Below, in pieces: positions 17,497 to 31,096 of a stretch of 64,000 nt of DNA (its first letter is position 1; each line of letters begins with the position of its first letter). Under the pieces are notes generated by a model that was given only the letters and a program-made list of their open reading frames with translations, had not been told where the DNA came from and did not search any database. Source of the stretch: an uncultured Ectothiorhodospiraceae bacterium (GTDB lineage Bacteria > Pseudomonadota > Gammaproteobacteria > S012-40). The stretch spans positions 6,088 to 70,087 of the forward strand of contig CALZJE010000003.1 of assembly GCA_945787715.1 (NCBI GenBank). Reading direction: 5' to 3'. The translations under genes were made by a program, and so were the position numbers.

Positions 17497-18903
17497 ATGC
17501 CGTCTAACGTTTTAAAGATGATGAAAGAATTTGAAGTGAAGTTTGTTGATTTTCGCTTCTCAGATACTCGCGGTAAACAAATGCATTTAACAGTTCCAAG
17601 TACAGCTGTTGATGAAGATTCATTAAAAGAAGGGATGATGTTTGATGGTTCTTCAATCAATGGTTGGAAGGGCATCAATGAGTCAGACATGATTTTGATG
17701 CCAGATCCAAGTACTGCGACAATGGATCCTTTCACTGAAGATTCAACGTTAAACATCGTATGTGATGTTGTTGAGCCAGCCACTATGTCTGGTTATGAGC
17801 GTGATCCTCGTTCTGTTGCTAAACGTGCAGAAGAATTTTTGAAATCTACAGGTATTGCAGATACCGCTTTCTTCGGTCCTGAAAATGAGTTTTTTGTGCT
17901 TGATGACGTTCGTTGGGGTGCTGATATGTCAGGCTCTTTTTGTAAAATAGATTCAGAAGAAGCAGAGTGGAACTCAGAAAAAGTTTATGCCGACGGTAAC
18001 ATGGGCCATCGTCCAGGTACTAAAGGCGGTTACTTCCCAGTACCACCAGTCGATTCTTTGTATGACTTGCGCTGTGCTATGACTACTGCGCTTCAGGAAA
18101 TGGGGCAAGAAGTTGAAGTGCATCATCATGAAGTAGCAACAGCTGGTCAATGTGAGATTGGTGTTAAATTCAACACATTAGTTTCAAAAGCTGACGAAGT
18201 TCAAGATCTAAAATATGTAATTCATAATGTATCGCATGTATATGGCAAGACAGCGACTTTTATGCCTAAGCCGATGGTTGGCGATAATGGTAATGGTATG
18301 CATGTTCACATGTCTCTTGCAAAAAATGGCGAGAATCTTTTTTCTGGTGATGAGTACGGTGGTCTATCTGAAACTGCACTTTTCTACATTGGTGGAATTA
18401 TTAAACATGCGCGTGCAATCAATGCTTTCGCAAATGCTTCGACAAATAGCTACAAACGTTTGGTCCCAGGATTTGAAGCACCAGTTATGCTAGCTTACTC
18501 TGCACGTAATCGTTCTGCTTCTATTCGTATTCCTTATGTCACAAACCCTAAAGGGCGTCGTATCGAAGTACGATTTCCCGATTCAACAGCAAACCCCTAT
18601 TTAGCGTTTGCTTGTATGTTGATGGCTGGTCTTGATGGAATTAAGAACAAAATCCATCCTGGTGATGCAATGGATAAAGATCTATACGATCTTCCACCAG
18701 AAGAAGAGAAAGAGATCCCACAAGTATGTTTTTCTTTCGATCAAGCATTAGAAGCACTAGATAAAGATCGTGAATTTTTAACTGCTGGTGGTGTATTTAC
18801 TGACGACATGATCGATGCTTATATTGATTTGAAAATGGAAGAAGTAACACGTTTACGCATGACAACTCACCCAGTTGAGTTTGATATGTACTATAGCTGT
18901 TAA
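17497..18903 (+). CDS. glnA: Glutamine synthetase type I
   Basis: 468 aa. [15 protein letters not shown], the [19 protein letters not shown] motif, the adenylylation-loop region NLYDLPPEE and ASIRIP. Confidence 0.97.
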
Positions 18904-18923
18904 TTTATTCTTTATTTTGTTTG

Positions 18924-18953
18924 AAAAACGCCCCTTTACGGGGCGTTTTTTTT
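18924..18953 (+). terminator. Rho-independent terminator after glnA
   Basis: AAAAACGCCCC-TTTAC-GGGGCGTTTTTTTT. Confidence 0.85.
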
Positions 18954-19043
18954 GCTGCTGAATTCTTTGATATTGCGTAGAATTATTGAGTAATAATTTC
19001 ATCAACTATTGAATCATTTAGTGACTTTATTGAGGTCAGCACA

Positions 19044-19595
19044 TTGCGAATAACTTTTCTAATACTGTTTTTCTTTTCAGCAAAACTCTCTGCTGCGGTC
19101 TACCAATACCAGGACGAAAATGGAAAGATAGTATTCACAGATAAAGAAGTACCTGGTAGCGTAGAGCGCAAAGTTCAATCACCACCTATAATTAAATTTC
19201 GCAAAGAAGAACAGGTTAAAAAAGAAATAGCGCCAACAGATAATAGTTTTACTGATATTACTGTTACAGAAAATAAAAACAAACCTAAGCCGTATACAAA
19301 ATTTAAAATTAGAAAACCGGTTGATGATGACAATTTTCGCGATAACTTAGGAAACGTACATCTGCAATTAGATATTTCACCTGGGATTCAAACTCAACAT
19401 GGTCATAAGCTCAAGGTTGAGTTTGATGGAAAAATGTTAACGGGTAGTTGGACCAGTTCAACTATCTCTTTTTTTAATGTGAATCGGGGTACTCATACAA
19501 TCCGTGCTTTCATTGTAGATAAAGCTGGTAAAAAAATTAAATCAACAAATACCAACACATTTCATCTACAACGGTTTTCGAAACTATTTCGTTAA
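19044..19595 (+). CDS. DUF4124-domain secreted protein
   Basis: Signal peptide MRITFLILFFFSAKLSA followed by VYQYQDENGKIVFTDK, which is DUF4124-like. Uses a TTG start. Confidence 0.6.
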   Translation: MRITFLILFFFSAKLSAAVYQYQDENGKIVFTDKEVPGSVERKVQSPPIIKFRKEEQVKKEIAPTDNSFTDITVTENKNKPKPYTKFKIRKPVDDDNFRDNLGNVHLQLDISPGIQTQHGHKLKVEFDGKMLTGSWTSSTISFFNVNRGTHTIRAFIVDKAGKKIKSTNTNTFHLQRFSKLFR

Positions 19596-19646
19596 TCCAC
19601 TTTCACGCGCTTCATCTGCACAATCTTTTTGTATGATTCTTATTCG

Positions 19647-19663
19647 CGCACTATAATGGTGCG
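19647..19663. promoter_or_regulatory. NtrC-type binding-site candidate upstream of ntrB
   Basis: CGCACTA-TAA-TGGTGCG compared with the enteric NtrC consensus TGCACCA-N3-TGGTGCA. Confidence 0.5.
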
Positions 19664-19758
19664 TTGTTAAAATGCGGAATTCGTATATCCCATCTCTGTG
19701 CTTGATATTTTGAATATTGCGATTGTTAACACACTGTTTTTATTCGTGATTATTTAAA

Positions 19759-20886
19759 ATGGTCGATGCGTCTTTTATTGGTTTAACTATTGCAGAGAAG
19801 TTAAATATGGTGCCGAACGAAAAGTGTAATAATTCAATATCAAAAGATTTGCTATACGCAAATATGTCTACAGCGTTGTTGCTGTTAGATGCAAATATGA
19901 AAGTTGTTGAAGCGAATCAAGCGACTGAAAATTTGCTCAATACCAGTGCAAGGCGAATTAAAGGTCTAGATGTTCATCAATTATTTGCAGGATCAGAAGC
20001 CTTTTTAAGTGCGCTCAAGCAAAGTAAGAATAATAAATTCAATGTCACTAAAAGCGAATTAGATCTACTCGTTCCTCATCTGTTACGTGTCATCAAAGTT
20101 GATTGTATTTTTTCACCAATCATCGAAAACGAACAAATTTTGATTGAGATGACGCAAATAGATGAAAAATTACGCGCGGCCAAAGAAGAGCATATTATTG
20201 AGCAGCAGGATGTTTTAAAAATATTGGTGAGAGGTTTTGCTCATGAGGTAAAAAATCCTCTCGGCGGAATTAGAGGCGCCGCACAATTACTTGAACGTGA
20301 GTTACCCTTCGATGATTTGAAAGAATATACCGACGTTATTATTGGTGAAACTGATCGCTTGCAAAAGTTGGTTGATGACATGCTGGGTCCAAATCGACCG
20401 ATGTCTAAAGAACCTGTCAATATACACAAGGTAATCGAACGAGTTCGTCAACTTGTTTTAGCTGAATCGGATGGAAAGTTGATATTCCGTCGCGATTATG
20501 ACCCAAGCTTACCGGAGATTTTTGCAGATTCAGATCAACTCATTCAATCCGTTTTGAATATAGTTCGTAACGCTAAGCAAGCAATGAATGGTGAAGGCGA
20601 AATTGTTGTTCGAACACGTTCAAGACACCATGTAATGATTGGACAAAGACATCATCGCTTGGTTGTTGGTGTAGAAATTATTGATAACGGGCCAGGGATT
20701 GCGCCTGATCTTTTAGACAAAATATTTTATCCAATGATTACCGGTCGTGCTGAAGGTACTGGGCTAGGTTTATCAATAGCCCAGACATTGATTGGCCAAC
20801 ACGGCGGTATTATTGAATGTAATAGCAAGCCTGGAGAAACAAACTTTACGTTGTTGATTCCAATTAATGCTAAGGAAACGGTGTAA
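19759..20886 (+). CDS. ntrB: Nitrogen regulation sensor histidine kinase NtrB
   Basis: N-terminal PAS domain, H-box FAHEVKNPLGGIRGAAQLL, N/G boxes IVRNAKQA and DNGPGI..GTGLGLSI. Directly precedes ntrC. Confidence 0.9.
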   Translation: MVDASFIGLTIAEKLNMVPNEKCNNSISKDLLYANMSTALLLLDANMKVVEANQATENLLNTSARRIKGLDVHQLFAGSEAFLSALKQSKNNKFNVTKSELDLLVPHLLRVIKVDCIFSPIIENEQILIEMTQIDEKLRAAKEEHIIEQQDVLKILVRGFAHEVKNPLGGIRGAAQLLERELPFDDLKEYTDVIIGETDRLQKLVDDMLGPNRPMSKEPVNIHKVIERVRQLVLAESDGKLIFRRDYDPSLPEIFADSDQLIQSVLNIVRNAKQAMNGEGEIVVRTRSRHHVMIGQRHHRLVVGVEIIDNGPGIAPDLLDKIFYPMITGRAEGTGLGLSIAQTLIGQHGGIIECNSKPGETNFTLLIPINAKETV

Positions 20887-20891
20887 ATATA

Positions 20892-22307
20892 ATGGCAAAA
20901 AAAGAACATATTTGGGTCATTGATGACGACAAATCAATTCGCTGGGTGTTAGAGCGTGCTTTAAGCAAAGCGGATATGGATGTTGATTGCTTTGAAAGCG
21001 CTTCAGGTATTCTCGATAAACTATCAAAAGGATTACCGGATGCGATAGTTTCGGATATTCGCATGCCAGGACAAGATGGTTTGGCGCTTCTTTCAGACAT
21101 TAATAAAGCTTATCCTGATCTCCCAGTAATCATTATGACGGCTCACTCCGATCTGGACAGTGCGGTATCGTCCTATGAAGGCGGTGCATTTGAATATTTG
21201 CCTAAACCCTTTGATGTTGACGATGCAGTTGATCTGGTAAGACGAGCAGTGGATCATAGTAGAAGTGCTACTACTAACGTCAGTGAACAAACTGAAGCTA
21301 CACAAACAGAAATTATTGGCGAAGCAGCAGCGATGCAGGAAGTGTTTCGAGCGATTGGGAGATTATCTCGTTCGAATATCACCGTTATGATAAATGGTGA
21401 ATCTGGGACGGGTAAGGAGCTTGTTGCGAGTGCACTTCATCGCCATAGTCCAAGAGCGTCTAATCCTTTTATCGCACTAAATACCGCTGCTATTCCAAAA
21501 GATTTATTGGAATCAGAACTATTTGGTCACGAAAGAGGTGCTTTTACTGGCGCGCAAACAACACGACGTGGCCGTTTTGAACAGGCTGATGGCGGAACAT
21601 TGTTTCTTGATGAAATTGGTGATATGCCCGCCGATTTACAAACTCGGCTTTTGCGGGTTTTAGCATCTGGAGAATTCTATCGGGTTGGTGGTCATGATCC
21701 CGTTAAAGTCAATGTTAGAATTATTGCAGCCACACACCAAGACCTGGAAGAGCGAGTAGGTAAAGGAAAATTCAGGGAAGACCTATTTCATCGTTTAAAT
21801 GTTATACGTATACATTTACCCGCCTTACGTGAAAGGCAAGAAGATATTCCACTATTGTTAAACTATTTTCTCGTTCGAGCAGCGAAGGAATTAAGTGTTG
21901 ATGTAAAAAGATTAAGGCCTGAAACTGCAAAGTTTTTGAGTCAGTTACAGTGGCCAGGTAATGTAAGACAGTTAGAAAATGTGTGCCGCTGGTTAACTGT
22001 GATGGCCCCAGGTCCTGAAATTCATGTAGAAGATCTTCCGGCGGAATTAAGAGAAGATGTGGTTAAAGCAAGCAGCAATTCTGATTGGGAAGGCGCTTTA
22101 AAGCTTTGGGCAAAAAGCAAGCTCTTGGCAGATGATCAAGGTATTATGGAGAATGCGACTCCCAGGTTCGAAAAAATATTGATAGAAGTTGCTTTAGCGC
22201 ATACCGCTGGGCGAAAACAGGAAGCTGCTAAATTGCTCGGAATTGGTAGAAATACACTGACGAGAAAGTTGAAAGAACTCAAAATAATTAGTGACGATGC
22301 AGCGTAA
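20892..22307 (+). CDS. ntrC: Nitrogen regulation response regulator NtrC (sigma-54 activator)
   Basis: Receiver domain (VIDDD..SDIRMPG..LPKP), AAA+ domain [14 protein letters not shown] loop, C-terminal Fis-type HTH. Confidence 0.93.
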
Positions 22308-22631
22308 CACTAGCTCCTGGCTATCTCCACTAACCGGTGAACTTGTACAGCAATCAAACCAATTCCTTGCACTCCAATCTCATACTCAACGGATCTTTTA
22401 AGATTTATCTTATCGGTTCCATTCCCGTATTAAACTTAGAAAAAAGTAGATTCATGAAATATACTCTGAGGGCTGTAACCCAACCCTTGTTTCGCCTAGC
22501 GATATGAAAAGCAATACTTTGTGTTTTTTTGATAGCCAGCTGCCTTTTCTAGGATAAGCCTAGAAAAATCAGTTGATCCGTGATTTAGCGCACAACCACT
22601 TGATTCACTTGGCAATATGAAAAGTATTTGA

Positions 22632-22648
22632 ATCACCAACCTGGTGAT
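22632..22648. promoter_or_regulatory. Perfect palindrome; enhancer (UAS) candidate
   Basis: ATCACCA-ACC-TGGTGAT, i.e. 7-3-7 with the same architecture as NtrC sites, located about 200 bp upstream of the sigma-54 promoter at 22837. Confidence 0.4.
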
Positions 22649-22736
22649 CATAAATATTTTCATTACGCCAATCAAACCGCACACTTGCATGCTAATTTCG
22701 CATCCAACAGATCTTTCTAGGTTAAACGTTTTTAGC

Positions 22737-22752
22737 GCGAAGTTTCCTTCGC
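22737..22752. promoter_or_regulatory. Second palindrome; enhancer (UAS) candidate
   Basis: GCGAAG-TTTC-CTTCGC, about 90 bp upstream of the -24 element. Related TTCGC motifs are at about 22707 (TTCGCATCC) and about 22790 (CTTCGCTTCGAA). Confidence 0.35.
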
Positions 22753-22836
22753 ATCAATTTACTTCATTATTCAAAAATACGAATCAATCTTCGCTTCGAA
22801 AACATTTAAGTCATTGTTTTATATATGTATTAATCT

Positions 22837-22852
22837 TGGCATTCATTCTGCT
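22837..22852 (+). promoter_or_regulatory. Sigma-54 (-24/-12) promoter of the five-gene cassette
   Basis: TGGCAT-TCATT-CTGCT with GG (22838-39) and GC (22850-51) 12 nt apart. It lies 56 nt upstream of ATG 22908, which has the SD AAAGGAG. Confidence 0.7.
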
Positions 22853-22907
22853 CCTATGCAAGAGATTAGTTTGATGTGATATTCAACCACGAATAAAGGA
22901 GAACAAC

Positions 22908-23627
22908 ATGCATGATTTAGATCAGACCCAACTCGATTATAGCCGTGCAGAGTTTGATGATGACGAGTTTGAGTTAGAAGGGGAGTTCGAAAATGATATG
23001 GCTGTGTCAGGTGCTGATGAATATGAGGATGAGGATGAGTTTGAAAGTGAATATGAGTTCGAATCCAACTTTGATGGAAACAGTCCTTTTAGTGAAGCAG
23101 AGGAAATGGAGCTTGCTGCGGAATTAATGGAAATTGCAGACGATGGGGAATTGGAATATTTTCTAGGTAGGCTGATTAAACGCGGCGCTCGACGGGTTGG
23201 TCGTAGGCTACGTAAACGTGTAGGTACACGGTTGAGAAAGGGGTTAAAAAGACTTGCTAAACGCGGTTTGAGATTCGCAGGTGGAGCTGTTGGTGGTGCG
23301 TTAGGTGGTCCTGTTGGAGCCGTGGTAGGACGAGCTGCGGGTCGTGGATTGGGAAAAGTGTTTGGACTTGAATTAGAAGGTATGAGTCTGGAAGACCAAG
23401 AGTTTGAAGCAGCGCGTCAATTTGTTCGGCTTGCAGGTGATGCTACCTCTACTGCAACAGCAATTCCCTCTTCTGTTAATGAAGAAGTTGTTGCTCACAA
23501 GGCGCTGAAAAGATCAGTGGTAAAATTTGCACCGGGACTCGCAGGTAAAACCAGACGCTCTGTTCGTGGAGAAAAATCTGGACGCTGGGTTCGTAAAGGT
23601 TCTAGCATCATTCTAATGGGTGTTTGA
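22908..23627 (+). CDS. Tripartite acidic / poly-cationic / glycine-zipper protein (candidate pro-toxin or pro-peptide)
   Basis: 239 aa. Residues 1-85 contain 35 D/E and one Arg (DEYEDEDEFESEYEFES). Residues 88-122 contain 18 R/K and no acidic residue (RLIKRGARRVGRRLRKRVGTRLRKGLKRLAKRGLR). Residues 123-153 contain 12 Gly (AGGAVGGALGGPVGAVVGRAAGRGLGKVFG). The tail is basic (..GRWVRKGSSIILMGV). Strong SD; first gene after the sigma-54 promoter. Confidence 0.7.
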   Translation: MHDLDQTQLDYSRAEFDDDEFELEGEFENDMAVSGADEYEDEDEFESEYEFESNFDGNSPFSEAEEMELAAELMEIADDGELEYFLGRLIKRGARRVGRRLRKRVGTRLRKGLKRLAKRGLRFAGGAVGGALGGPVGAVVGRAAGRGLGKVFGLELEGMSLEDQEFEAARQFVRLAGDATSTATAIPSSVNEEVVAHKALKRSVVKFAPGLAGKTRRSVRGEKSGRWVRKGSSIILMGV

Positions 23628-24946
23628 GTCCCATGACTACCCCGCTGGTACGACAAGTTCTGAGCAATGAGACTCAAGCACTGATGGCTCGTCTCAGAGG
23701 AATTAAGCCGTTTTCCTTACATGTGCCGATGGTTGCTGCCGCTGCTTTGCAAACTTCAGCTCAACAATTGATAGAGCAGCATATGCACAGGGTATTGTCG
23801 TCAGTCGCTCAGATGCTCGGAACATATGAAGACTGGTTAAATAGTGAGGCGGGGCGTCGAACCAAAGATGCCACTGCACAGCGACATCTAACACTGGTGA
23901 GATTGCGTTTCCATGCAGCATTGACGCAGTTTGATCTTTTTTCAGATGTACTTACTCAGCGTAGTGAACATGAGTTTGGTGTCTGGCTCGCTGGACTTGA
24001 TGCACTAGCAGTGGATGCATTAAAAATAGAAGGAAAATACTTCGAACTGCCAGGTGTCGCGTGTTATCTAGATCGAGGAATAGGTGCTGCTATTCGACGG
24101 GTACGTACACGCTTACCTGGCGGGCGTGAAAATCCTGTTGCTATAATTCGAGTTCCTCGTGAGCGGATGATTGGCTCAGGCATCGCTTCATCGTTGGTTC
24201 ATGAAGTCGGGCATCAGGGTGCTGCGTTGCTAAACCTTGTGGAATCATTACGAAAGGAATTGCAGAGAAAAATTCATTCTGACGGATCGCCGTGGCGTTT
24301 ATGGCAACAATGGATATCAGAAATCATTGCTGACTTTTGGTCTGTAGCGCAGATCGGTGTGGGTTCTACTTTGGGTTTAATGGGTGTTGTTAGCTTACCG
24401 CGTGCATTTGTATTTAGAATTAGTGAAGAGGATCCTCATCCTTCACCGTGGATACGAGTCATGTTGAGTGCATCGATTGGCCAAGCCCTTTATCCGGATT
24501 CTCAATGGCGTCGTCTTCGTGAAGTTTGGATGCGTCTTTATCCGCGCACAGGTATCGATCCGGAAAAGGAACAACTGTTTCAAGGTTTGGAAGCTACGAT
24601 ACAGGAGTTTGTTGAGTTATTAACTCAACATCGGCCACGAACACTAGAAGGGATATCATTGTTAGAAATTTTCCCTGTTTCAGATAGACAACCAGATCGG
24701 TTAAGAAACTTATATGGTCAATGGTCAGGGAGGTTTAACGCTTGGCGCACCTCGTCCCCGGCGTTAGCGTTTGCCGTTATCGGACAAGCACGCGCTGATG
24801 ATCGACTAAGTGTATCAGATGAATCGAATCTTATTAATAGACTATTAAACCATTGGGCATTCAATCGAAATGATTTAAATAATCAATGCGGATGTAGACC
24901 TAAGGCGAATGCATATTCAACTGCAGTTATATCTACTGCGTTATAA
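23624..24946 (+). CDS. Orphan HExxH (gluzincin-like) putative metallopeptidase
   Basis: 440 aa. SSLVHEVGHQG (H193-H197, nt 24200-24214) with a candidate third ligand E233 in WISEIIADFW. The TTG 23624 / ATG 23633 start overlaps or abuts the upstream stop, which suggests translational coupling. Confidence 0.55.
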   Translation: MSPMTTPLVRQVLSNETQALMARLRGIKPFSLHVPMVAAAALQTSAQQLIEQHMHRVLSSVAQMLGTYEDWLNSEAGRRTKDATAQRHLTLVRLRFHAALTQFDLFSDVLTQRSEHEFGVWLAGLDALAVDALKIEGKYFELPGVACYLDRGIGAAIRRVRTRLPGGRENPVAIIRVPRERMIGSGIASSLVHEVGHQGAALLNLVESLRKELQRKIHSDGSPWRLWQQWISEIIADFWSVAQIGVGSTLGLMGVVSLPRAFVFRISEEDPHPSPWIRVMLSASIGQALYPDSQWRRLREVWMRLYPRTGIDPEKEQLFQGLEATIQEFVELLTQHRPRTLEGISLLEIFPVSDRQPDRLRNLYGQWSGRFNAWRTSSPALAFAVIGQARADDRLSVSDESNLINRLLNHWAFNRNDLNNQCGCRPKANAYSTAVISTAL

Positions 24947-24957
24947 GGAGTCTTGTA

Positions 24958-26826
24958 ATGAAACAAATAGATAATATATCGATTATACAATCTCACCATG
25001 CCGTAGTGCCGGACGGTGCAGTTTCTCTACGCTTATCAGAGAACTATGTAGATGTAACAAAGTACACATATATTTGGCGTACTCCTGAATCGTTGGGTGA
25101 GTTTAATTATATTGATCAACCCAATGTTATATGGACCGCTCCATTAAAAGCAGCAGGTGTGGTAGAAATAAGCGTAGAGATTATGCCTAAAAGCGGACAG
25201 AGTGGAGGTAAGAAACGCAATACACGTGCTTCATCGGAAAATTCCACGGCTGAATCTACACATCTCGAAAATATAGAGACAATAATCATCTCAACTACGG
25301 TGGAAGTTACGCCAAATGCTTTGCCTTTAGATGTAGTTGGTGCGATTGGAGAAGGTGTTAAGGCTATCAAAGAGGGTCTACCCGGTCAGGAAATACGTTT
25401 GGAGCGACAATTTCCTGCGCTTACGCCTCAAAAATCATTGTGGGCTATTATTCGCGACCGTACCAATGCAATTTCATTTAACAATTACAAAGCATTTATC
25501 GACTCGATTATGTGTGGCGGTGATACCTATCACAGCAAACAGATTCCCCATGAAGTTAAAGAATATGTCAATTTTGATCCGAGTAAATTGCACTACCGAG
25601 GTACCGAGTCGTATGAGGTTTTACGAAAAGCGACAGAAGCATTTCTGATGCATGAAATTGGTGCTTTACCCACTCCCGTAAATGAATCTGAAAAATTTCC
25701 CTTAGCAGACCCTGCTGAACAAAAACGGCGTTTACCACAACTCGCGGGTTCAAATGACGAAGAAGTTCAAATGGAAATGGAAAGTAATCGAACTGAATAT
25801 TTAAAAACATTGGAAGACGAAAGTCGGACCTTTCCTTATTTTAAACTTATCCGCGATCGTTTAAGTGAGATACCCCTTAAACCTCCTGGCTCATCAGGAG
25901 AAGGATGTTATGGATTATTGCGTTCGCGAATTTCACCACCAATTTTACTAGAATTAATCTGGTCTTATTGGCACGAAGAAGGAGGTTTGGTGCAAACAAT
26001 GAAAGCCATTAATATGCGCTTTCAGAACCGTTTATATAATCCACGTAAAAATGGGAGCGATCCGTTGGCTAATCTTAACTTGGATCCGTTACGTCCTATG
26101 AGCAATATTATTTGGGGATATATTCAAAATGAGCACGAGCATTTAACGTTATCAAGACGCGCTTATGAATACGATCATCATTATGGATTCAGTATCGCCG
26201 GAAAGGCAGTACCCAAACTCAACTCTGCCGATAGCCGTACTAAATTTTTAGAGGCGTTTCACAGTCTTCTTCATCGTGCCTCGGTGTTTTACAAAGAGCA
26301 ATCTGATACAACTAAAGTACCCGATGGTTATCCGTTGCTAAATGGATTGAAGGAATGTCATTTGTTGCTGGCTGAAGGTGCACATAACCAATTTGGTGAT
26401 TTACCCTGGACAGCGCGTATTGAAATGCTCATCGAGCAATGGATGTTAGCGCGGCCAGAAACACGGAATTTTTTGAACCGACGAGTGATGGTGCCTTACT
26501 CAGAAGAGTGGATGCCAGCGGTTGATCAAATGAAAGACTTGCAAGGTTGGTCAGGTGGTACCGTGCGTCATTTTCGAGATCTAGGAACGTTCGGTGAACA
26601 AATCTTGTTGTCAGTACGTTATGGAGATTGGAGTGAAAATTTTAATGAAGATGAAGCCAAAATCTGGGCTCAGTATTGGCGACAGGAGATTCAAGGTTAT
26701 ATCAATGCGTATCGTTCAGTAACGAGTGTAGACTTGGGATCGGATGCAGATCTGGCAAATGCTACGCTATCTCGTCAACGATCGACTGCACCTGCCGAGT
26801 TATTGAAACAGCAAGGTACTCGTTGA
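24958..26826 (+). CDS. Large hypothetical protein, no recognisable domain
   Basis: 622-aa uninterrupted ORF with SD AAGGAG 7 nt upstream. An N-terminal ~75-aa beta-rich module and a Ser/Gly/Lys linker are followed by a Trp/His-rich helical body (LLELIWSYWHEEGGLVQTMKAINMRFQN). Confidence 0.6.
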   Translation: MKQIDNISIIQSHHAVVPDGAVSLRLSENYVDVTKYTYIWRTPESLGEFNYIDQPNVIWTAPLKAAGVVEISVEIMPKSGQSGGKKRNTRASSENSTAESTHLENIETIIISTTVEVTPNALPLDVVGAIGEGVKAIKEGLPGQEIRLERQFPALTPQKSLWAIIRDRTNAISFNNYKAFIDSIMCGGDTYHSKQIPHEVKEYVNFDPSKLHYRGTESYEVLRKATEAFLMHEIGALPTPVNESEKFPLADPAEQKRRLPQLAGSNDEEVQMEMESNRTEYLKTLEDESRTFPYFKLIRDRLSEIPLKPPGSSGEGCYGLLRSRISPPILLELIWSYWHEEGGLVQTMKAINMRFQNRLYNPRKNGSDPLANLNLDPLRPMSNIIWGYIQNEHEHLTLSRRAYEYDHHYGFSIAGKAVPKLNSADSRTKFLEAFHSLLHRASVFYKEQSDTTKVPDGYPLLNGLKECHLLLAEGAHNQFGDLPWTARIEMLIEQWMLARPETRNFLNRRVMVPYSEEWMPAVDQMKDLQGWSGGTVRHFRDLGTFGEQILLSVRYGDWSENFNEDEAKIWAQYWRQEIQGYINAYRSVTSVDLGSDADLANATLSRQRSTAPAELLKQQGTR

Positions 26827-26863
26827 TGCCCATGTTTCACCTCAACTCTTACTACTAGGAGGG

Positions 26864-27694
26864 ATGATAATGTTTGAAGATGGAGATTACGATGATTTAC
26901 GTGAGGAAAAGTTTCTGAACTGGCCAGAAAGGAACAGACCTCCACGCCTAAAAAGTCGGATTGCTGCCCTACATCGTTCTTATTCGCCTGATCCAGTAGG
27001 TCGGGTTCAGCGTAATAACTCAATACGATCAAAAGATGATATGGTGGAATTTAATTTTTCAGGTTTAGAAGTAGACGGATTTATTTCACGAGAGGTAGAA
27101 GATGAACAGTTTCTAAATTATTTATGGCCATTCTCATCAGATCCCAATATTGTGGATCGCACAGCTTATTCACCTAAGTCTAAGCGAAAGAAAATTCGAG
27201 ATATTGATACAGTTTATGCACTGGTTTTACATCAAGCAGGCTTTAGTCGTGGAAATGATCCTAAAAAATATAATAATGTGACTTCTCATTTTGTCATTAT
27301 GCCAAACGGAACTATTCTTCAACTCCACCCTTTGACTGCCTATTTATATTCTTCCAATGGGTTTAATCGGGGTAGTGTAGCTGTTGAATTTATCGGTAAT
27401 TTTCCTAGCGAGCGTGGCAGATGCTGGAAACCTGAAAAGTATGGTTGTAATCAGGTTTCAAACGATCAAATTGAGGCAGGTCGACAATTAATTAGATATT
27501 TAAGGAAAAAAATAGGGCTGACTCACGTGTTGGCGCACCGTCAATCGAGTGGTTCGAGAGGCAATGATCCGGGGCCAGACCTTTGGCACCAAGTTGGGCA
27601 ATGGGGTGTAAATAAGCTAGGGCTAAATGATGGGGGGCATGGTTTTAAAATTCAGTCGGGTAAGGCAATTCCTGATTCATGGCGTAAAACTTAG
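26864..27694 (+). CDS. N-acetylmuramoyl-L-alanine amidase, amidase_2 (AmpD/PGRP/T7-lysozyme) fold, no signal peptide
   Basis: YALVLHQAGFS (first His ligand), GSVAVEFIGNF, and LAHRQSSGSRGNDPGPDLW (His, then Asp 10 residues later, followed by DPGP). About 110 aa of unassigned N-terminal extension precede the domain. The likely start is ATG 26870, downstream of AGGAGG. Confidence 0.8.
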   Translation: MIMFEDGDYDDLREEKFLNWPERNRPPRLKSRIAALHRSYSPDPVGRVQRNNSIRSKDDMVEFNFSGLEVDGFISREVEDEQFLNYLWPFSSDPNIVDRTAYSPKSKRKKIRDIDTVYALVLHQAGFSRGNDPKKYNNVTSHFVIMPNGTILQLHPLTAYLYSSNGFNRGSVAVEFIGNFPSERGRCWKPEKYGCNQVSNDQIEAGRQLIRYLRKKIGLTHVLAHRQSSGSRGNDPGPDLWHQVGQWGVNKLGLNDGGHGFKIQSGKAIPDSWRKT

Positions 27695-27730
27695 ATCGAA
27701 AAACCATTAAATATAATCATTGAAGGAAAA

Positions 27731-28645
27731 TTGGTGAGAGATATGAGGTCTTATGAAGAACTAAGTAGAGTTTCCCATGAAAATGGCAAAGATAAAGAGT
27801 TTTATTATAAGTCGAAGGTTAGACCGGTTTCTAATTCTATGGGTGATTTTAGTCAACAGGAAATTGTTGACGATTTTGACGATAGAAAAAGACTTGGCAG
27901 TATCAAAGATACACCTTATAGGTGGATATGCATGCTGGATTTGCACACAAAAAGTGGATTATTTGGTGGGACTGGAGTACTCATTTCCCCCAGACACATT
28001 CTTACGGCTGGGCATAACCTAGATGGTTGTAATAAAGTAGTAGTGGTGCCTGGAATTAATGGTCGCTTCAAGCCATTTGGAAGTTACGAATCTACAACGA
28101 TGATTGCCCACGATAAATGGAAAAAACATAGAGACGATAATTTTGATATTGGCATGATAAAACTTTCCAAACCGGTTGGGAATCAAAGGTTTAATTCAAT
28201 AAAGGGAAATGTTCTGGGTCATTGGGGACATTCTGCTTTCGGAATGGGTACGAGAATTATACCATTTGTGCAGAGCAATCAATTAAACAAAAAAGCAAAT
28301 ATTGCTGGTTATCCAAGTGATAAAGGATTTACGCAGCTTTGGTGGGATGCGGGTAAAATTGTCAATACCGCGCCTGCCAAAGCATCAGGAGCAATCTATT
28401 ACACTATGGATACATGTGGTGCTCAAAGTGGAAGTCCAGTTTGGTTAAGAAGTAAAAGTTCAGGAGCAAGATTTTTAATTGCTATACATAGTGGTCCATG
28501 TTTATTAGATGGCTCAGATTGCAAAGAATTATCTGGAAAGCTTTGTCCCGGTAGTAGTTTACGTAAACCACACTCTTCTAATATGGGGGTATTTTTAACA
28601 GCGGGACTAATTAAGACGATTAGAAGTTGGATTCGCTCTATGTAA
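27731..28645 (+). CDS. S1B (V8-like, COG3591-type) trypsin-fold serine endopeptidase, no signal peptide
   Basis: Catalytic triad contexts ILTAGHNL (His), NFDIGMIKL (Asp) and DTCGAQSGSPVW (Ser, GxSGSPV as in V8/SspA). The likely start is ATG 27746. Confidence 0.8.
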   Translation: MVRDMRSYEELSRVSHENGKDKEFYYKSKVRPVSNSMGDFSQQEIVDDFDDRKRLGSIKDTPYRWICMLDLHTKSGLFGGTGVLISPRHILTAGHNLDGCNKVVVVPGINGRFKPFGSYESTTMIAHDKWKKHRDDNFDIGMIKLSKPVGNQRFNSIKGNVLGHWGHSAFGMGTRIIPFVQSNQLNKKANIAGYPSDKGFTQLWWDAGKIVNTAPAKASGAIYYTMDTCGAQSGSPVWLRSKSSGARFLIAIHSGPCLLDGSDCKELSGKLCPGSSLRKPHSSNMGVFLTAGLIKTIRSWIRSM

Positions 28646-28735
28646 TCGCTATTAGAAATAATACCAAACAAATTTGTTCAACGTTATAAGTATTAAAGGT
28701 TTCGATAACTAACAAGTAAGTGTATTAATGACAGT

Positions 28736-30085
28736 TTATGAATGATTTTCTTGTTGCTTGCGCAACTGTAGCGCTCGCGGCGTAATTTTTAATTGCTTTG
28801 CAATCTTCGCGGTAGAGCCATTATGTTCAGCCATAGCAACATCGATAGCAACATCGGCGGCAGCACTACTAATTTCTTTTAAGCCCACGCCCAGTGAGAG
28901 TGCTTTACGAACAGCGGCTTCAAGATCTCCACGGCGCCAGTCACTCGTTTCTCTTGTGATGTTTTGAAATTCATCGTGGGGTATATCACCGATCGTATAT
29001 TGGCCGTCGCAAACATGACGGCCTCGCATGCGTAAGCAAAGCTGTCGAAGATCACGAATATTACCAGGATAAGCACGATTAATGAGATGGTGCTGTACGG
29101 CTGAGTCGAGTTCTGGATTTATATCATTTTGATGACGGAGGAAATGTTTAGCTAACGATAGAATGTCTTCCTTACGTTGTGAAAGTGATGGCAGCGTAAC
29201 GGTCCAATCTGCGAGACGGTAATAAAGATCACGGCGAAAACGCCCTGCTTCAATTTCTTCTAATAAATTTCGATTTGTAGCGCAGACTAGTCTGAAATCG
29301 GTGTCATGCCATGTGTTGCCACCGACTCGTTTGTAACGTTTTTCTTGAAAAACGCGTAGCAGTTGCACTTGAAGATCCAATGGCAACTCGCCGACTTCGT
29401 CTAGAAATAAGACACCACCGTCGGCCCGCGAAAATGCTCCTTCACGTTGACTACCTGCTCCGGTAAAAGCACCGCGCTCGTGACCAAAAAATTCACTGCC
29501 AGATAGGCTTGGGACAATGGTGGCACAATCTACTATGCTAAGTTCCTGCTGACTACGCAGAGGATCTACGGAATGAATAACTTTTGCAGCGAGTTCTTTT
29601 CCTGTTCCCGTTTCACCGTTAATTAAAACTGCATAATCACTAAATCTCGCGGCTTCAACAATTTGCCTTAAGGCCATTAGCCAAGGTATGCTGTGGCCAA
29701 TGACGATATCTTGTATTTCTGGGGAATTAGTGATTTTATTTACTCTCTCCCAACGACGAAGACGTACTGCAATATGGTCAGCTGTTTTACCTTCGTTGTC
29801 CCATAAGACGACGTCACTCGCGCCAGCTTCAATCAAACGATATACATCGTTACTATTTAGGTAGTCTGGGTTTGTGGTTACTGCGATAACGCGCTGTTGG
29901 GTTCTACAAGAGAATTTAGAAATACAGCTATATACATTGTCATCGGCATGATCGAATACGATAATCGCGGCTTTCGCATTATCTTTTGTATCGTCAATAC
30001 AAAAAATCACGCCTCGATTAATGAGGATTTGATGGATCGAATCGCGATTCACTACACCCAAGCAATTTAGGACTGTCCGTGTCAT
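28736..30085 (-). CDS. Sigma-54-dependent transcriptional activator (bEBP) with atypical receiver-like N-domain
   Basis: AAA+ domain with GETGTGKE, an intact GAFTGA loop ([13 protein letters not shown]), Walker B LFLDEVGEL, and a C-terminal HTH (STAKIAKQLKITPRALQLR). The N-terminal ~120 aa are receiver-like, but VLWD replaces the K-P motif. Convergent with the cassette. Confidence 0.9.
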   Translation of the reverse strand: MTRTVLNCLGVVNRDSIHQILINRGVIFCIDDTKDNAKAAIIVFDHADDNVYSCISKFSCRTQQRVIAVTTNPDYLNSNDVYRLIEAGASDVVLWDNEGKTADHIAVRLRRWERVNKITNSPEIQDIVIGHSIPWLMALRQIVEAARFSDYAVLINGETGTGKELAAKVIHSVDPLRSQQELSIVDCATIVPSLSGSEFFGHERGAFTGAGSQREGAFSRADGGVLFLDEVGELPLDLQVQLLRVFQEKRYKRVGGNTWHDTDFRLVCATNRNLLEEIEAGRFRRDLYYRLADWTVTLPSLSQRKEDILSLAKHFLRHQNDINPELDSAVQHHLINRAYPGNIRDLRQLCLRMRGRHVCDGQYTIGDIPHDEFQNITRETSDWRRGDLEAAVRKALSLGVGLKEISSAAADVAIDVAMAEHNGSTAKIAKQLKITPRALQLRKQQENHS

Positions 30086-30631
30086 TTGCCACCTCTGGAT
30101 TCACACTGATTTTTTTGGGTATTACATTACCCATCTTATGTTTATTAGCTACCAGGTAATTACACAGAACCCACAAACCATGTAAATCTAGGGTGGTTAT
30201 TTCATTATGAAATTTGTTGAAGAAAGTCAATCAATCATTGAAATATTATTTATCATGGTAGAAAAAAGGTAAAACTTATAACTGTTTTTTTAAATATTGA
30301 TCAGCAATTCGTTACGATATGAAGTAATGTAGTGAAAATTACCAAAACTTAAAAACTGTGCAGTAGTTAGTACTAAACCATTGTTTTCTTAAAACTTACT
30401 TAAGACTATTTAAAGTGAGTTAATCAGAATGTCAGTAGTCGGATAATCCAATCTTCAAGTGTATTATTTCTCTTGCTGTATCCGGCAATTTAAACAACAA
30501 AATGTAGGCCAACACCGATATACATTGAAAGATATTAGATTCACCGCTTAGTTTCGTTTGATATTGGACAAGGCTATTATTTTTAAATTCTCATAATTAC
30601 GATATGATATTCATTTTTATGAATGTGAATT

Positions 30632-31096
30632 ATGTTTATCGTCGCTCTATACGAACCAGAAATCCCACCCAATACAGGAAATATTATTCGGCTTTGTTCA
30701 AATATCGGAGCTGAACTCCACTTGATAAAACCGCTGGGTTTTGATCTGGATGATAAAAAATTACGTCGAGCTGGATTGGACTATAGTGAGTGGGTGGATG
30801 TTAAAATCCACGAAAACTACGATACTTTTCTTGAGTCATTAGGCTCATCACGGATATTTGCATGTTCAACTCACGGTACTAAACGTTATACTGATATGAG
30901 CTATCGAGATGGGGATGTTTTTTTATTTGGGCCAGAGACTCGAGGTTTACCGAAAGAATTACGGTTGGATTTTCCACCAGATCAAGTGATAAAACTCCCT
31001 ATGGTGCCGAATAATCGAAGCCTGAATTTATCTAATGCAACTTCAATTATTTTATATGAAGCGTGGCGGCAGTTAGACTTTATAGGAGCAGAGTAA
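30632..31096 (+). CDS. trmL: tRNA (cytidine/uridine-2'-O-)-methyltransferase TrmL (SpoU family)
   Basis: 154 aa. ALYEPEIPPNTGNIIRLCSNIGAELHLIKPLGF and LFGPETRGLP. Confidence 0.88.
   Translation: MFIVALYEPEIPPNTGNIIRLCSNIGAELHLIKPLGFDLDDKKLRRAGLDYSEWVDVKIHENYDTFLESLGSSRIFACSTHGTKRYTDMSYRDGDVFLFGPETRGLPKELRLDFPPDQVIKLPMVPNNRSLNLSNATSIILYEAWRQLDFIGAE

Follow-up and report, generated by a model that had tools for sequence, protein, structure and literature searches.

A charge-balanced glycine-zipper protein at the head of a conserved sigma-54 cassette: a possible self-masked precursor for attack on the bacterial envelope

What might a bacterium do with a protein whose first 85 residues carry a net charge of −34, whose middle carries +18 (+21 when the glycine part is included), and whose overall net charge is −9? 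Such a protein is encoded by gene A, which lies in the 64,000-nucleotide stretch of DNA from an uncultured Ectothiorhodospiraceae bacterium that we analysed (the window; table 1). A preliminary description had read it as an anionic propiece balancing a cationic, membrane-active peptide, after the manner of eukaryotic defensin and cathelicidin precursors. The residue counts behind that reading were reproduced exactly in all three segments. The conserved N-terminus, MHDLD(R/Q)T, is followed by an aromatic–acidic run of varying length. The amphipathic spacing proposed for residues 88–122 was also borne out: the maximum helical hydrophobic moment is 0.86, above 97.7% of composition-preserving shuffles (2.3% reach it), and the basic helical face is conserved. 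The N-terminus of the protein, MHDLDQTQLDYS, is hydrophilic and holds no signal peptide (maximum KD10 of −0.45 in the first 35 residues), and there is no cysteine among the 239 residues.

Table 1. Positions within the window of gene A, its control elements and the neighbouring genes of the cassette.
Feature	Position (nt)	Strand	Remarks
Imperfect palindrome	22609..22671	.	30-nt arms, 70% complementary; 170–230 bp upstream of promoter; candidate enhancer
Sigma-54 type −24/−12 promoter	22837..22852	+	TGGCATtcattcTGCT (GG-N10-GC); 3′ end 55 nt upstream of gene A ATG
Ribosome-binding site of gene A	22896..22901	+	AAGGAG; strong; 6 nt 5′ of ATG
Gene A	22908..23627	+	239 aa and TGA stop; translation identical to that in the preliminary description
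A, residues 1–85, acidic region	22908..23162	+	13 D, 22 E, 1 R; net −34
A, residues 59–80, conserved acidic helix	23082..23147	+	SPFSEAEEMELAAELME
A, residues 81–87, junction	23148..23168	+	ELEYFLG; E81, F85 and G87 family-invariant; candidate hinge or processing site
A, residues 88–122, polycationic amphipathic helix	23169..23273	+	13 R and 5 K (18 of 35 residues), no D/E; net +18
A, residues 123–153, glycine zipper	23274..23366	+	12 G of 31 residues; Gly every fourth residue from 125 to 153; central GGP
A, residues 154–167, second acidic motif	23367..23408	+	LELEGMSLEDQEFE; nearly invariant; closes the 87-aa module
A, residues 168–239, conserved C-terminal region	23409..23624	+	ARQFVRLAG, FAPGL, then family tail GRWVRKGSSIILMGV
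Gene B	23624..24946	+	440 aa from TTG (first ATG 23633); overlaps gene A stop codon by 4 nt
B, Arg-rich loop	24086..24124	+	AAIRRVRTRLPGG; invariant
B, HEVGH	24200..24214	+	Invariant
B, WISEIIADFW	24311..24340	+	Holds the invariant Glu
Gene C	24958..26826	+	622 aa; variable Ig/PKD-like N-terminal beta-sandwich and highly conserved helical core matching no known fold
Gene D, N-acetylmuramoyl-L-alanine amidase (Amidase_2)	26864..27694	+	Acidic then basic N-terminus; no signal peptide
Gene E, trypsin-like serine protease	27731..28645	+	No signal peptide; triad intact (TAGH, DIGMI, SGSP)
Gene F, sigma-54 enhancer-binding protein	28736..30085	-	AAA+ and HTH_8; convergent with operon

Does gene A resemble anything already catalogued? 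Neither A nor its neighbours B and C gave anything above threshold in Pfam, NCBIfam, PADLOC (its defence models included) or PHROGs, and no relative of A was found in the PDB, where sequence-profile searches with A, B and C returned for A just designed helical repeats at E > 0.03. Weak similarity of A to two Pfam families recurs below their thresholds: to C19orf12-like at 14 bits against a cut-off of 30 (best E 1.4e-4 among 20 family members), and to Gly-zipper_Omp in two of the 20 members at E 0.007. Type-A lantibiotic matches in four of the 20 (E ≥ 0.15) are far below threshold, and Bacteriocin_IIc was matched at E 6.3. Library scans detected no DNA- or RNA-binding domain in A. The earlier statement that no established bacterial family is built in this way holds in so far as no curated family covers gene A, but the suggestion that bacteria lack such logic was too strong. 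Anionic leaders on the cationic cores of lantibiotics and bacteriocins embody the same principle.

Homologues of gene A fall into at least 577 clusters at E ≤ 1e-3, in many phyla, and matches in species-representative genomes occupy 387 stretches. Common to the family are ELxxFLG, the basic amphipathic helix, an i,i+4 glycine ladder, EDQEFE and a C-terminal GRWxRRGxxIILxGV. Across 85 modules, 63 of which are 87 aa long, E81 is conserved at 0.99 and F85 and G87 at 1.0; the junction that had earlier been suspected of conservation is the best conserved one in the family. Lys or Arg is kept at positions 91, 92, 95, 99, 102, 107, 114, 118 and 119, and Gly at 125, 129, 133, 137, 141, 149 and 153 (with G, A or S at 145), at conservations of 0.79–0.99, while Asp and Glu are essentially absent at every position from 88 to 153. 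The second acidic patch is nearly invariant, and the tail is family-conserved and restricted to module-bearing ORFs (93/130). Of 84 loci, 37 have paralogues in tandem, two-module forms reach about 400 aa, and in places the module is fused C-terminally to PG_binding proteins.

These results modify the picture of a propiece and a peptide. Its charge balance stands, but some 85 conserved residues extend beyond the supposed peptide, so that gene A is a multi-segment protein and not a propiece plus peptide. Likewise, the notion of a membrane-active core draws support from the conserved GxxxG ladder, but the glycine segment falls short of transmembrane hydropathy throughout the family: by KD hydropathy in a 19-residue window (KD19), our transmembrane criterion, it reaches at most 1.36, which is below threshold, with a family median of 1.13 and no member at 1.6.

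If the acidic part balances the basic part, as had been proposed, do the two change together? The net charge of the middle segment varies in the family from +6 to +26 (median +14), the Lys/Arg density of the present protein (18/35) being at the high end. The charge of the N-terminal part follows it inversely, with a Spearman coefficient of −0.84 over 116 sequences (−0.79 over 73 sequences). In sister-pair contrasts (n = 57) the correlation is −0.61 (p 5e-7), and the two charges shift in opposite directions in 34 of 40 sister pairs (p 8e-6). We conclude from these sequences that the balance of acidic and basic charge in gene A is an evolutionary constraint.

How is the gene controlled? The consensus TGGCAYN5YTGCW occurs once in the window, both strands taken together, where 0.31 matches are expected, and that one match is the promoter site of table 1. 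An equivalent −24/−12 motif stands ahead of the leading A-like gene in 54 of 82 loci (66%), as against 2.9% of random segments. The palindrome farther upstream may serve the sigma-54 activator as an enhancer (UAS); bEBP sites typically sit at such a distance upstream of sigma-54 promoters. The activator itself is probably gene F, which matches Sigma54_activat (Pfam, E 3e-56) and HTH_8 and whose N-terminal domain of about 125 aa has no family assignment; in PADLOC its AAA+/HTH part matches RtcR/PspF-type models, and protease E gives a weak match. In 48 of 84 loci a homologue of F sits no more than 10 kb away, and some cassettes carry rpoN itself. As judged by these conserved signals, the A-B-C operon answers to a sigma-54 promoter and has an activator of its own close by.

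What might be the roles of the two proteins that accompany A? Gene A stands at the head of the operon in all loci, together with the highly conserved, family-less B and C. Gene B was found in 83 of 84 loci; a profile search with it gathered 1142 clusters, and long ‘fusion’ matches were rejected as frameshifted high-GC ORFs without Pfam domains. Every one of 30 sequences of B has the H-E-x-x-H motif and, 36 residues further on, a Glu; the predicted structure (pTM 0.84) places both on helices that follow two strands. Foldseek found nothing at E < 0.001 among known structures, zincins included, and the sequence of B has no match in the PDB, Pfam or NCBIfam. Since B thus has no structural likeness to zincins or to solved proteins, ‘protease’ is here a motif-based label. 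Gene C is found in 77 of 84 loci, and its absences are mostly where a contig end cuts the locus.

Around this invariant core the enzymes differ from locus to locus. The accessory genes include Amidase_2, Muramidase, Peptidase_M74 (endopeptidase), PLD and Trypsin, most of them with PG_binding_1; the Amidase_2 of gene D matches endolysin PHROGs. The six cassette proteins of the window have neither a signal peptide nor a transmembrane segment. An acidic-then-polycationic layout was found in 23 of 198 ORFs of the payload zone and in 0 of 335 controls, and the payload leaders combine an N-terminal F-E-x-x-P-F-like motif with an Arg/Pro-rich stretch. The trypsin-like protein was considered as a maturase of gene A and rejected; at other loci it bears PG_binding_1 and a leader of its own, and so resembles another payload. 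Neighbourhood ORF clusters 4–14 were likewise rejected, as antisense shadow ORFs. Of 83 loci, 55 have an aminotransferase-like gene and 39 an Amidohydro_2 gene; both genes are missing from the cassette of the window, and they fit ill with a pure lysis model. At 42.7% GC, with flanks at about 38%, the cassette of the window forms a GC-rich island.

Carriers of the cassette are found among nitrifiers, methanotrophs, Acidobacteria, Chloroflexi, myxobacteria and rhizobial megaplasmids, and the plasmid records that contain it bear no annotation. Among cultured bacteria it is carried by Paraburkholderia phymatum STM815, Ensifer adhaerens, Variovorax and Nocardiopsis. A phage origin finds no support in 50,697 phage records and the IMG/VR contigs, from which gene B is missing. 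Full-text searches of the literature found no description of the cassette, and the text of a paper on nitrogen starvation in P. phymatum does not mention its genes.

What, then, would such a cassette do? An acidic mask over a basic middle, together with the lead place in a cassette of wall-degrading enzymes, makes a self-inhibited, membrane-attacking protein the most likely interpretation, and the cassette as a whole is most likely a tightly gated device for envelope attack or lysis. Specifically, we suggest, as a tentative reading that we rate somewhat short of probable, that gene A encodes the auto-neutralised precursor of a membrane-acting, polycationic glycine-zipper effector at the head of a sigma-54-gated envelope-attack cassette. 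On the evidence of the conserved control signals, the operon of A, B, C, amidase and protease would remain silent until the neighbouring enhancer-binding protein activates the −24/−12 promoter. Protein A would then be made in the cytoplasm, soluble and net-negative, with its acidic N-terminal region and EDQEFE masking the basic amphipathic helix; the charge compensation speaks for such masking, and physical contact between the parts may be supposed. Removal or displacement of the mask would take place at ELxxFLG, invariant in the family, and protein B is the likeliest agent: it carries HExxH, it is translationally coupled to A, and its invariant Arg-rich loop would be well fitted to a polyanionic substrate. 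If glycine-zipper toxins are a guide, the bared cationic helix would bind anionic lipids, and the GxxxG ladder would drive oligomerisation and permeabilise the membrane. The signal-less wall hydrolases could thereby reach the peptidoglycan, and their Arg/Pro-rich leaders would aid passage across the outer membrane. In the end either the producer would lyse and free the arsenal, or cells nearby would come under attack. This effector model leaves unaccounted for the motifs that are strictly conserved at the N- and C-termini of gene A.

Might gene A be no toxin at all? Together with B and C it could serve as conduit, adaptor or plug of a non-lytic export route, independent of signal peptides, whose substrates are the hydrolases and the A paralogues. 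The invariance of A, B and C beside variable enzymes would suit such a route, as would payloads that lack signal peptides and share a leader motif and an Arg/Pro-rich stretch, and the occasional C-terminal fusion of the module to PG_binding proteins. There are reported precedents: holin-dependent non-lytic protein release, a domesticated secretion derivative of lysis cassettes (PMC9527704), and the effector Tde1, which bears a glycine zipper that mediates its translocation (PMC10240207). Against export, B and C both lack transmembrane segments, gene A has no classical transmembrane helix, no transporter, ATPase or membrane channel recurs among the neighbours, and self-masking better explains the charge compensation within A; we consider it unlikely. 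A broader scheme, to which we would give slightly more credence while still doubting it, would make the A-B-C core a previously unrecognised, sigma-54-gated machine for the release or delivery of signal-less proteins. Its clients (wall hydrolases, phospholipase D, proteases and A-type glycine-zipper proteins) would be recognised by the acidic–aromatic leader that they share, charge masking within each molecule would hold them inactive until B and C act, and the machine would have carried its own sigma-54 gene into the Actinobacteria, a phylum that to our knowledge is otherwise reported without sigma-54.

The order of the genes, with a precursor-like one followed by conserved family-less enzymes, also invites comparison with a large RiPP-like or polyprotein-like precursor, modified or cut by B, C and the aminotransferase-like and amidohydrolase enzymes and recognised through its acidic leader. 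The tandem and two-module forms, the ELxxFLG junction, the recurrent aminotransferase-like and Amidohydro_2 genes and the faint lantibiotic matches all lean this way. But RiPP precursors have a hypervariable core and that of gene A is conserved and of fixed length; the searches brought up no known RiPP enzyme, recognition element or transporter; B and C belong to no catalogued family; the window's cassette lacks both accessory enzymes; and the lantibiotic scores are too low to count as matches. We find this improbable, and we think no better of a role away from the membrane, in which A would bind a cytoplasmic polyanion such as nucleic acid or polyphosphate, or form condensates, with the acidic region as an autoinhibitory mimic. 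An Arg/Lys-rich helix beside an acidic low-complexity tail is often met in autoinhibited nucleic-acid binders, and the glycine segment of A is too little hydrophobic for a transmembrane helix. On the other hand, the conserved i,i+4 ladder is a signature of membrane association or of oligomerisation, and the identifiable partners, namely peptidoglycan hydrolases, phospholipase D and signal-less proteases, all aim at the envelope, a context that favours this target over nucleic acid. The absence of a nucleic-acid-binding domain from the library scans points in the same direction. That the strongly biased composition reflects a chance low-complexity frame is ruled out, to a virtual certainty, by hundreds of homologues across phyla with conserved, non-repetitive motifs and by a fixed place at the head of a conserved operon; gene A has, besides, its own ribosome-binding site and a conserved promoter.

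How does the favoured reading, that of a self-masked effector, compare with known systems? As in the precursors of alpha-defensins and cathelicidins and the multi-peptide precursors of amphibians and insects, which two-module forms of A resemble, an acidic segment offsets a cationic effector, and in A the offset co-evolves. This is an analogy of design and not homology: gene A lacks the signal peptide, the cysteines and, having no Pfam match, the cathelin or defensin fold, its cationic part is followed by about 85 further conserved residues, and its processing is hypothetical. Artilysins, which are engineered, and natural lysins use polycationic segments to cross Gram-negative outer membranes. 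The payloads of the cassette share with Artilysins the combination of an Arg/Pro-rich polycation, PG_binding_1 and a hydrolase; they differ in the acidic patch that comes before the polycation, in being chromosomally encoded and, apparently, in their sigma-54 control. Class II double-glycine bacteriocins have a short leader ending in GG and a C39-peptidase ABC exporter; gene A has FLG after an 87-aa acidic region, and no transporter among its recurrent neighbours.

Glycine zippers are borne by antibacterial toxins that depolarise membranes, among them the T7SS effector TelE (PMC10434224) and the ionophoric CdiA-CT toxins of CDI (PMC11630599). Gene A has in common with them a (GxxxG)n ladder beside an amphipathic region and antibacterial-type enzymes nearby. 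It differs in that its hydropathy is below transmembrane level, that the cassette has no T6SS, T7SS or CDI delivery domains and no immunity genes, and that the acidic mask would stand in for an immunity protein. Like a holin–endolysin cassette, the present one joins a small, presumptively membrane-directed protein to signal-less peptidoglycan hydrolases under tightly gated expression. However, holins are defined by at least one transmembrane domain, of which gene A has none by KD19, and phage lysis cassettes have neither the two extra invariant, family-less proteins nor sigma-54 control, and the present cassette is missing from phage records and viral contigs. In Neisseria gonorrhoeae a bacteriocin-like peptide island is reported to mediate autolysis (PMC11798529); programmed autolysis by peptides of a horizontally acquired island is the point of likeness, the present cassette being a GC-rich island. 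Size, regulation and gene content are different, and kinship in sequence is not to be expected.

What follows for the bacteria that carry it? The cassette is widespread in environmental phyla and undescribed, and it brings with it three large protein families without known relatives. If our reading is true, bacteria would have arrived independently at the masking of a cationic effector by an anionic propiece that is known from animal host-defence peptides, and would use it both for a glycine-zipper protein and for an entire suite of enzymes that degrade the wall. The cassette would then add a new case of cell lysis or protein release under tight control, would offer an explanation for the rare sigma-54 genes of Actinobacteria, and might provide new antibacterial protein scaffolds in the form of lysins that penetrate the outer membrane naturally. 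Its cultured carriers make it directly testable.

The open reading frame of A, the first gene of the cassette, translates into the 239-aa protein of the preliminary description, whose residue counts are exact. Residues 1–85 hold 13 Asp, 22 Glu and one Arg (net −34); residues 88–122 hold 13 Arg, 5 Lys and neither Asp nor Glu (net +18); residues 123–153 hold 12 Gly. The amphipathic-like character ascribed to the basic stretch is borne out by a helical hydrophobic moment of 0.86, which only 2.3% of shuffles reach. A database search turned up 577 homologue clusters with E ≤ 1e-3, spread over Acidobacteria, Chloroflexi, Nitrospirota, Proteobacteria, Bacteroidota, Gemmatimonadota and Actinobacteria, among others; in species-representative genomes 387 stretches match A. 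Both the gene and its family are real. As had been supposed, no established family covers them: A belongs to a large uncharacterised family with no match in Pfam, NCBIfam, PADLOC, PHROG or PDB.

In the family alignment the N-terminal MHD(L/I)D(R/Q)T is conserved. Next comes an acidic aromatic run whose length varies, then a conserved acidic helix (PFSEAEEMELAAELLEV) and the ELxxFLG junction between acidic and basic parts. Beyond the junction lie the basic helix and the glycine ladder, followed by LELEGLSxEDQEFE, by a conserved stretch containing HAPGL and by the C-terminal tail SGRWVRRGxxIILxGV. The junction, the second acidic patch and the tail, picked out earlier in the single protein, are all conserved. 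In P. phymatum, (GEYQ)n repeats replace the acidic run. The central module, which the second acidic motif closes, is repeated in forms of about 400 aa. Across 85 modules its length is fixed (87 aa in 63), Lys/Arg are conserved with helical spacing and no acidic residue falls between the two acidic motifs. Between 125 and 153, Gly recurs with a period of four residues: the suspected glycine-zipper repeats are a conserved ladder.

Does the acidic part balance the basic part, as the propiece idea held? In 73 single-module homologues the median net charge is −29 for the N-terminal and +14 for the middle part; the two are inversely related (rho −0.79) while the total stays near −8. Extending the set to 116 sequences gives a rho of −0.84. 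For 57 sister pairs, picked on the C-terminal part only, the charge contrasts gave r −0.61 (p 5e-7), and where both parts had changed they did so in opposite directions in 34 of 40 pairs (p 8e-6). We conclude that charge compensation within A is under selection, which is the strongest support for the balancing propiece.

Downstream lie the conserved partners of A, the HExxH protein B and protein C, present in 83 and 77 of 84 related loci, respectively, with absences mostly at contig ends. Of these loci, 47 have a single A module, 28 have two and 9 have three; in occasional cases the module is fused to the end of PG_binding proteins. In the window the cassette forms a GC-richer island (42.7% versus about 38% in the flanks), inserted between the two neighbours given in the table. 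No tRNA or Rfam element was found in the window, and the cassette occurs neither in phage records nor in viral contigs. Rhizobial and Paraburkholderia megaplasmids carry it, among them those of cultured, genetically tractable strains: pBPHY01 of Paraburkholderia phymatum STM815 (locus L086, 7884–14920) and a plasmid of Ensifer adhaerens (L085).

Table. Features of the window discussed in the text.
Feature	Position	Strand	Remark
glnA-ntrB-ntrC	17497–22307		left neighbour of island
Island	22308–30631		
ATATGAAAAG	~22503, ~22615		
Imperfect palindrome	22609–22671		30-nt arms
−24/−12 motif TGGCATtcattcTGCT	22837–22852		ends 55 nt before ATG of A
Ribosome-binding site AAGGAG	6 nt upstream of A start	+	
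A	22908–23627	+	first gene
B	23624–24946	+	overlaps A by 4 nt
Arg-rich loop of B, AAIRRVRTRLPGG	24086–24124		just before HExxH helix; low-confidence region of model
C	24958–26826	+	
Amidase_2 protein	26864–27694	+	
Trypsin-like protease	27731–28645	+	
Sigma-54 activator	28736–30085	−	convergent with operon
SpoU/TrmL-type methyltransferase gene	30632–31096		right neighbour of island
Predicted lipoprotein, 400 aa	31102–32304	−	signal sequence ends LISCGGG; just beyond island
Lys/Glu-rich protein, 975 aa	57664–60591	−	predicted coiled-coil; unrelated to A; accounts for strong AT-skew dip at 58–60 kb

The promoter signals of the operon are of the sigma-54 type and are conserved. Neither strand of the window has a −24/−12 match other than TGGCATtcattcTGCT, and 66% of loci have an equivalent motif ahead of their first A-like gene, versus 2.9% of random segments. 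In 48 of 84 loci an activator is encoded no more than 10 kb away. The palindrome is 170–230 bp upstream of the promoter, the usual enhancer distance; it and the ATATGAAAAG copies are candidate activator binding sites. Eight loci carry rpoN beside A, B and C (L004, 8532–9845; L047, L017, L022, L024, L037, L072 and L048), including Nocardiopsis (Actinobacteria) and several Chloroflexi. Actinomycetota are reported to be effectively without RpoN (PMC12316311). The cassette seems to bring its sigma factor with it, and sigma-54 control therefore appears integral to it.

B and C each have thousands of homologues, all named 'hypothetical'. Between phyla, B sequences share about 55% identity. Invariant in B are HExxH, a Glu 36 residues further on and an Arg-rich loop, AAIRRVRTRLPGG, to which the polyanionic part of A might bind. 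The model of B is confident (pTM 0.84), with no structural neighbours beyond generic helical bundles. The motif, the adjacency to A and the charge of B suggest a maturation protease. The model of C is poor and finds matches only for its Ig/PKD-like N-terminus.

The enzymes of the cassette target the envelope. Accessory genes fuse PG_binding_1 to Trypsin, Amidase_2, Peptidase_M74, Muramidase or phospholipase D; the window's Amidase_2 protein matches endolysin PHROGs and its protease keeps an intact catalytic triad. Its six cassette proteins contain no signal peptide or transmembrane segment, and no transporter recurs in the neighbourhood. In 23 of 198 payload-zone ORFs, versus 0 of 335 controls (Fisher p 5.5e-11), the N-terminus is an acidic patch with an Arg/Pro-rich polycation behind it. 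The patch frequently holds an F-E-x-x-P-F-like motif. Payload enzymes have this acidic-aromatic motif in common; their polycation is reminiscent of proline-rich antimicrobial peptides, and PG_binding_1 and the hydrolase come after it (e.g. L020, 8383–9774; L038, 10343–11416; L022, 14850–16430; L005, 16107–17315). The arrangement may serve as a shared leader for recognition or for penetration.

What, then, is A? The defensin/cathelicidin logic once proposed survives as a design principle, common to A and animal antimicrobial-peptide precursors, but the features defining those families were not found when tested. Bacteriocin leaders and holin–endolysin cassettes share the principle loosely, and tests for the features that define them were likewise negative. 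Our literature search found no paper describing the cassette. The best-supported reading, which we hold tentatively, is that A is an auto-neutralised polycationic glycine-zipper effector heading a cassette for envelope attack or lysis whose expression is tightly gated. Against it, the Gly segment lies below transmembrane hydropathy in every family member, and the conserved termini of A, and C, are left unexplained. Many cassettes, moreover, include an aminotransferase class I/II-like gene (55 of 83 loci; e.g. L016, 13819–14886) or an Amidohydro_2 gene (39 of 83; e.g. L044, 16220–17044), both absent from the window. A part for A in a novel non-lytic export route we consider unlikely. Less probable still, and to about the same degree, are a RiPP-like precursor and a cytoplasmic polyanion binder.

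If A is such an effector, its acidic part would physically mask the basic helix until B cleaved at ELxxFLG, and A would then permeabilise a membrane, that of either the producer or neighbouring cells. There is a small but real chance that the A–B–C core represents a categorically new release system.
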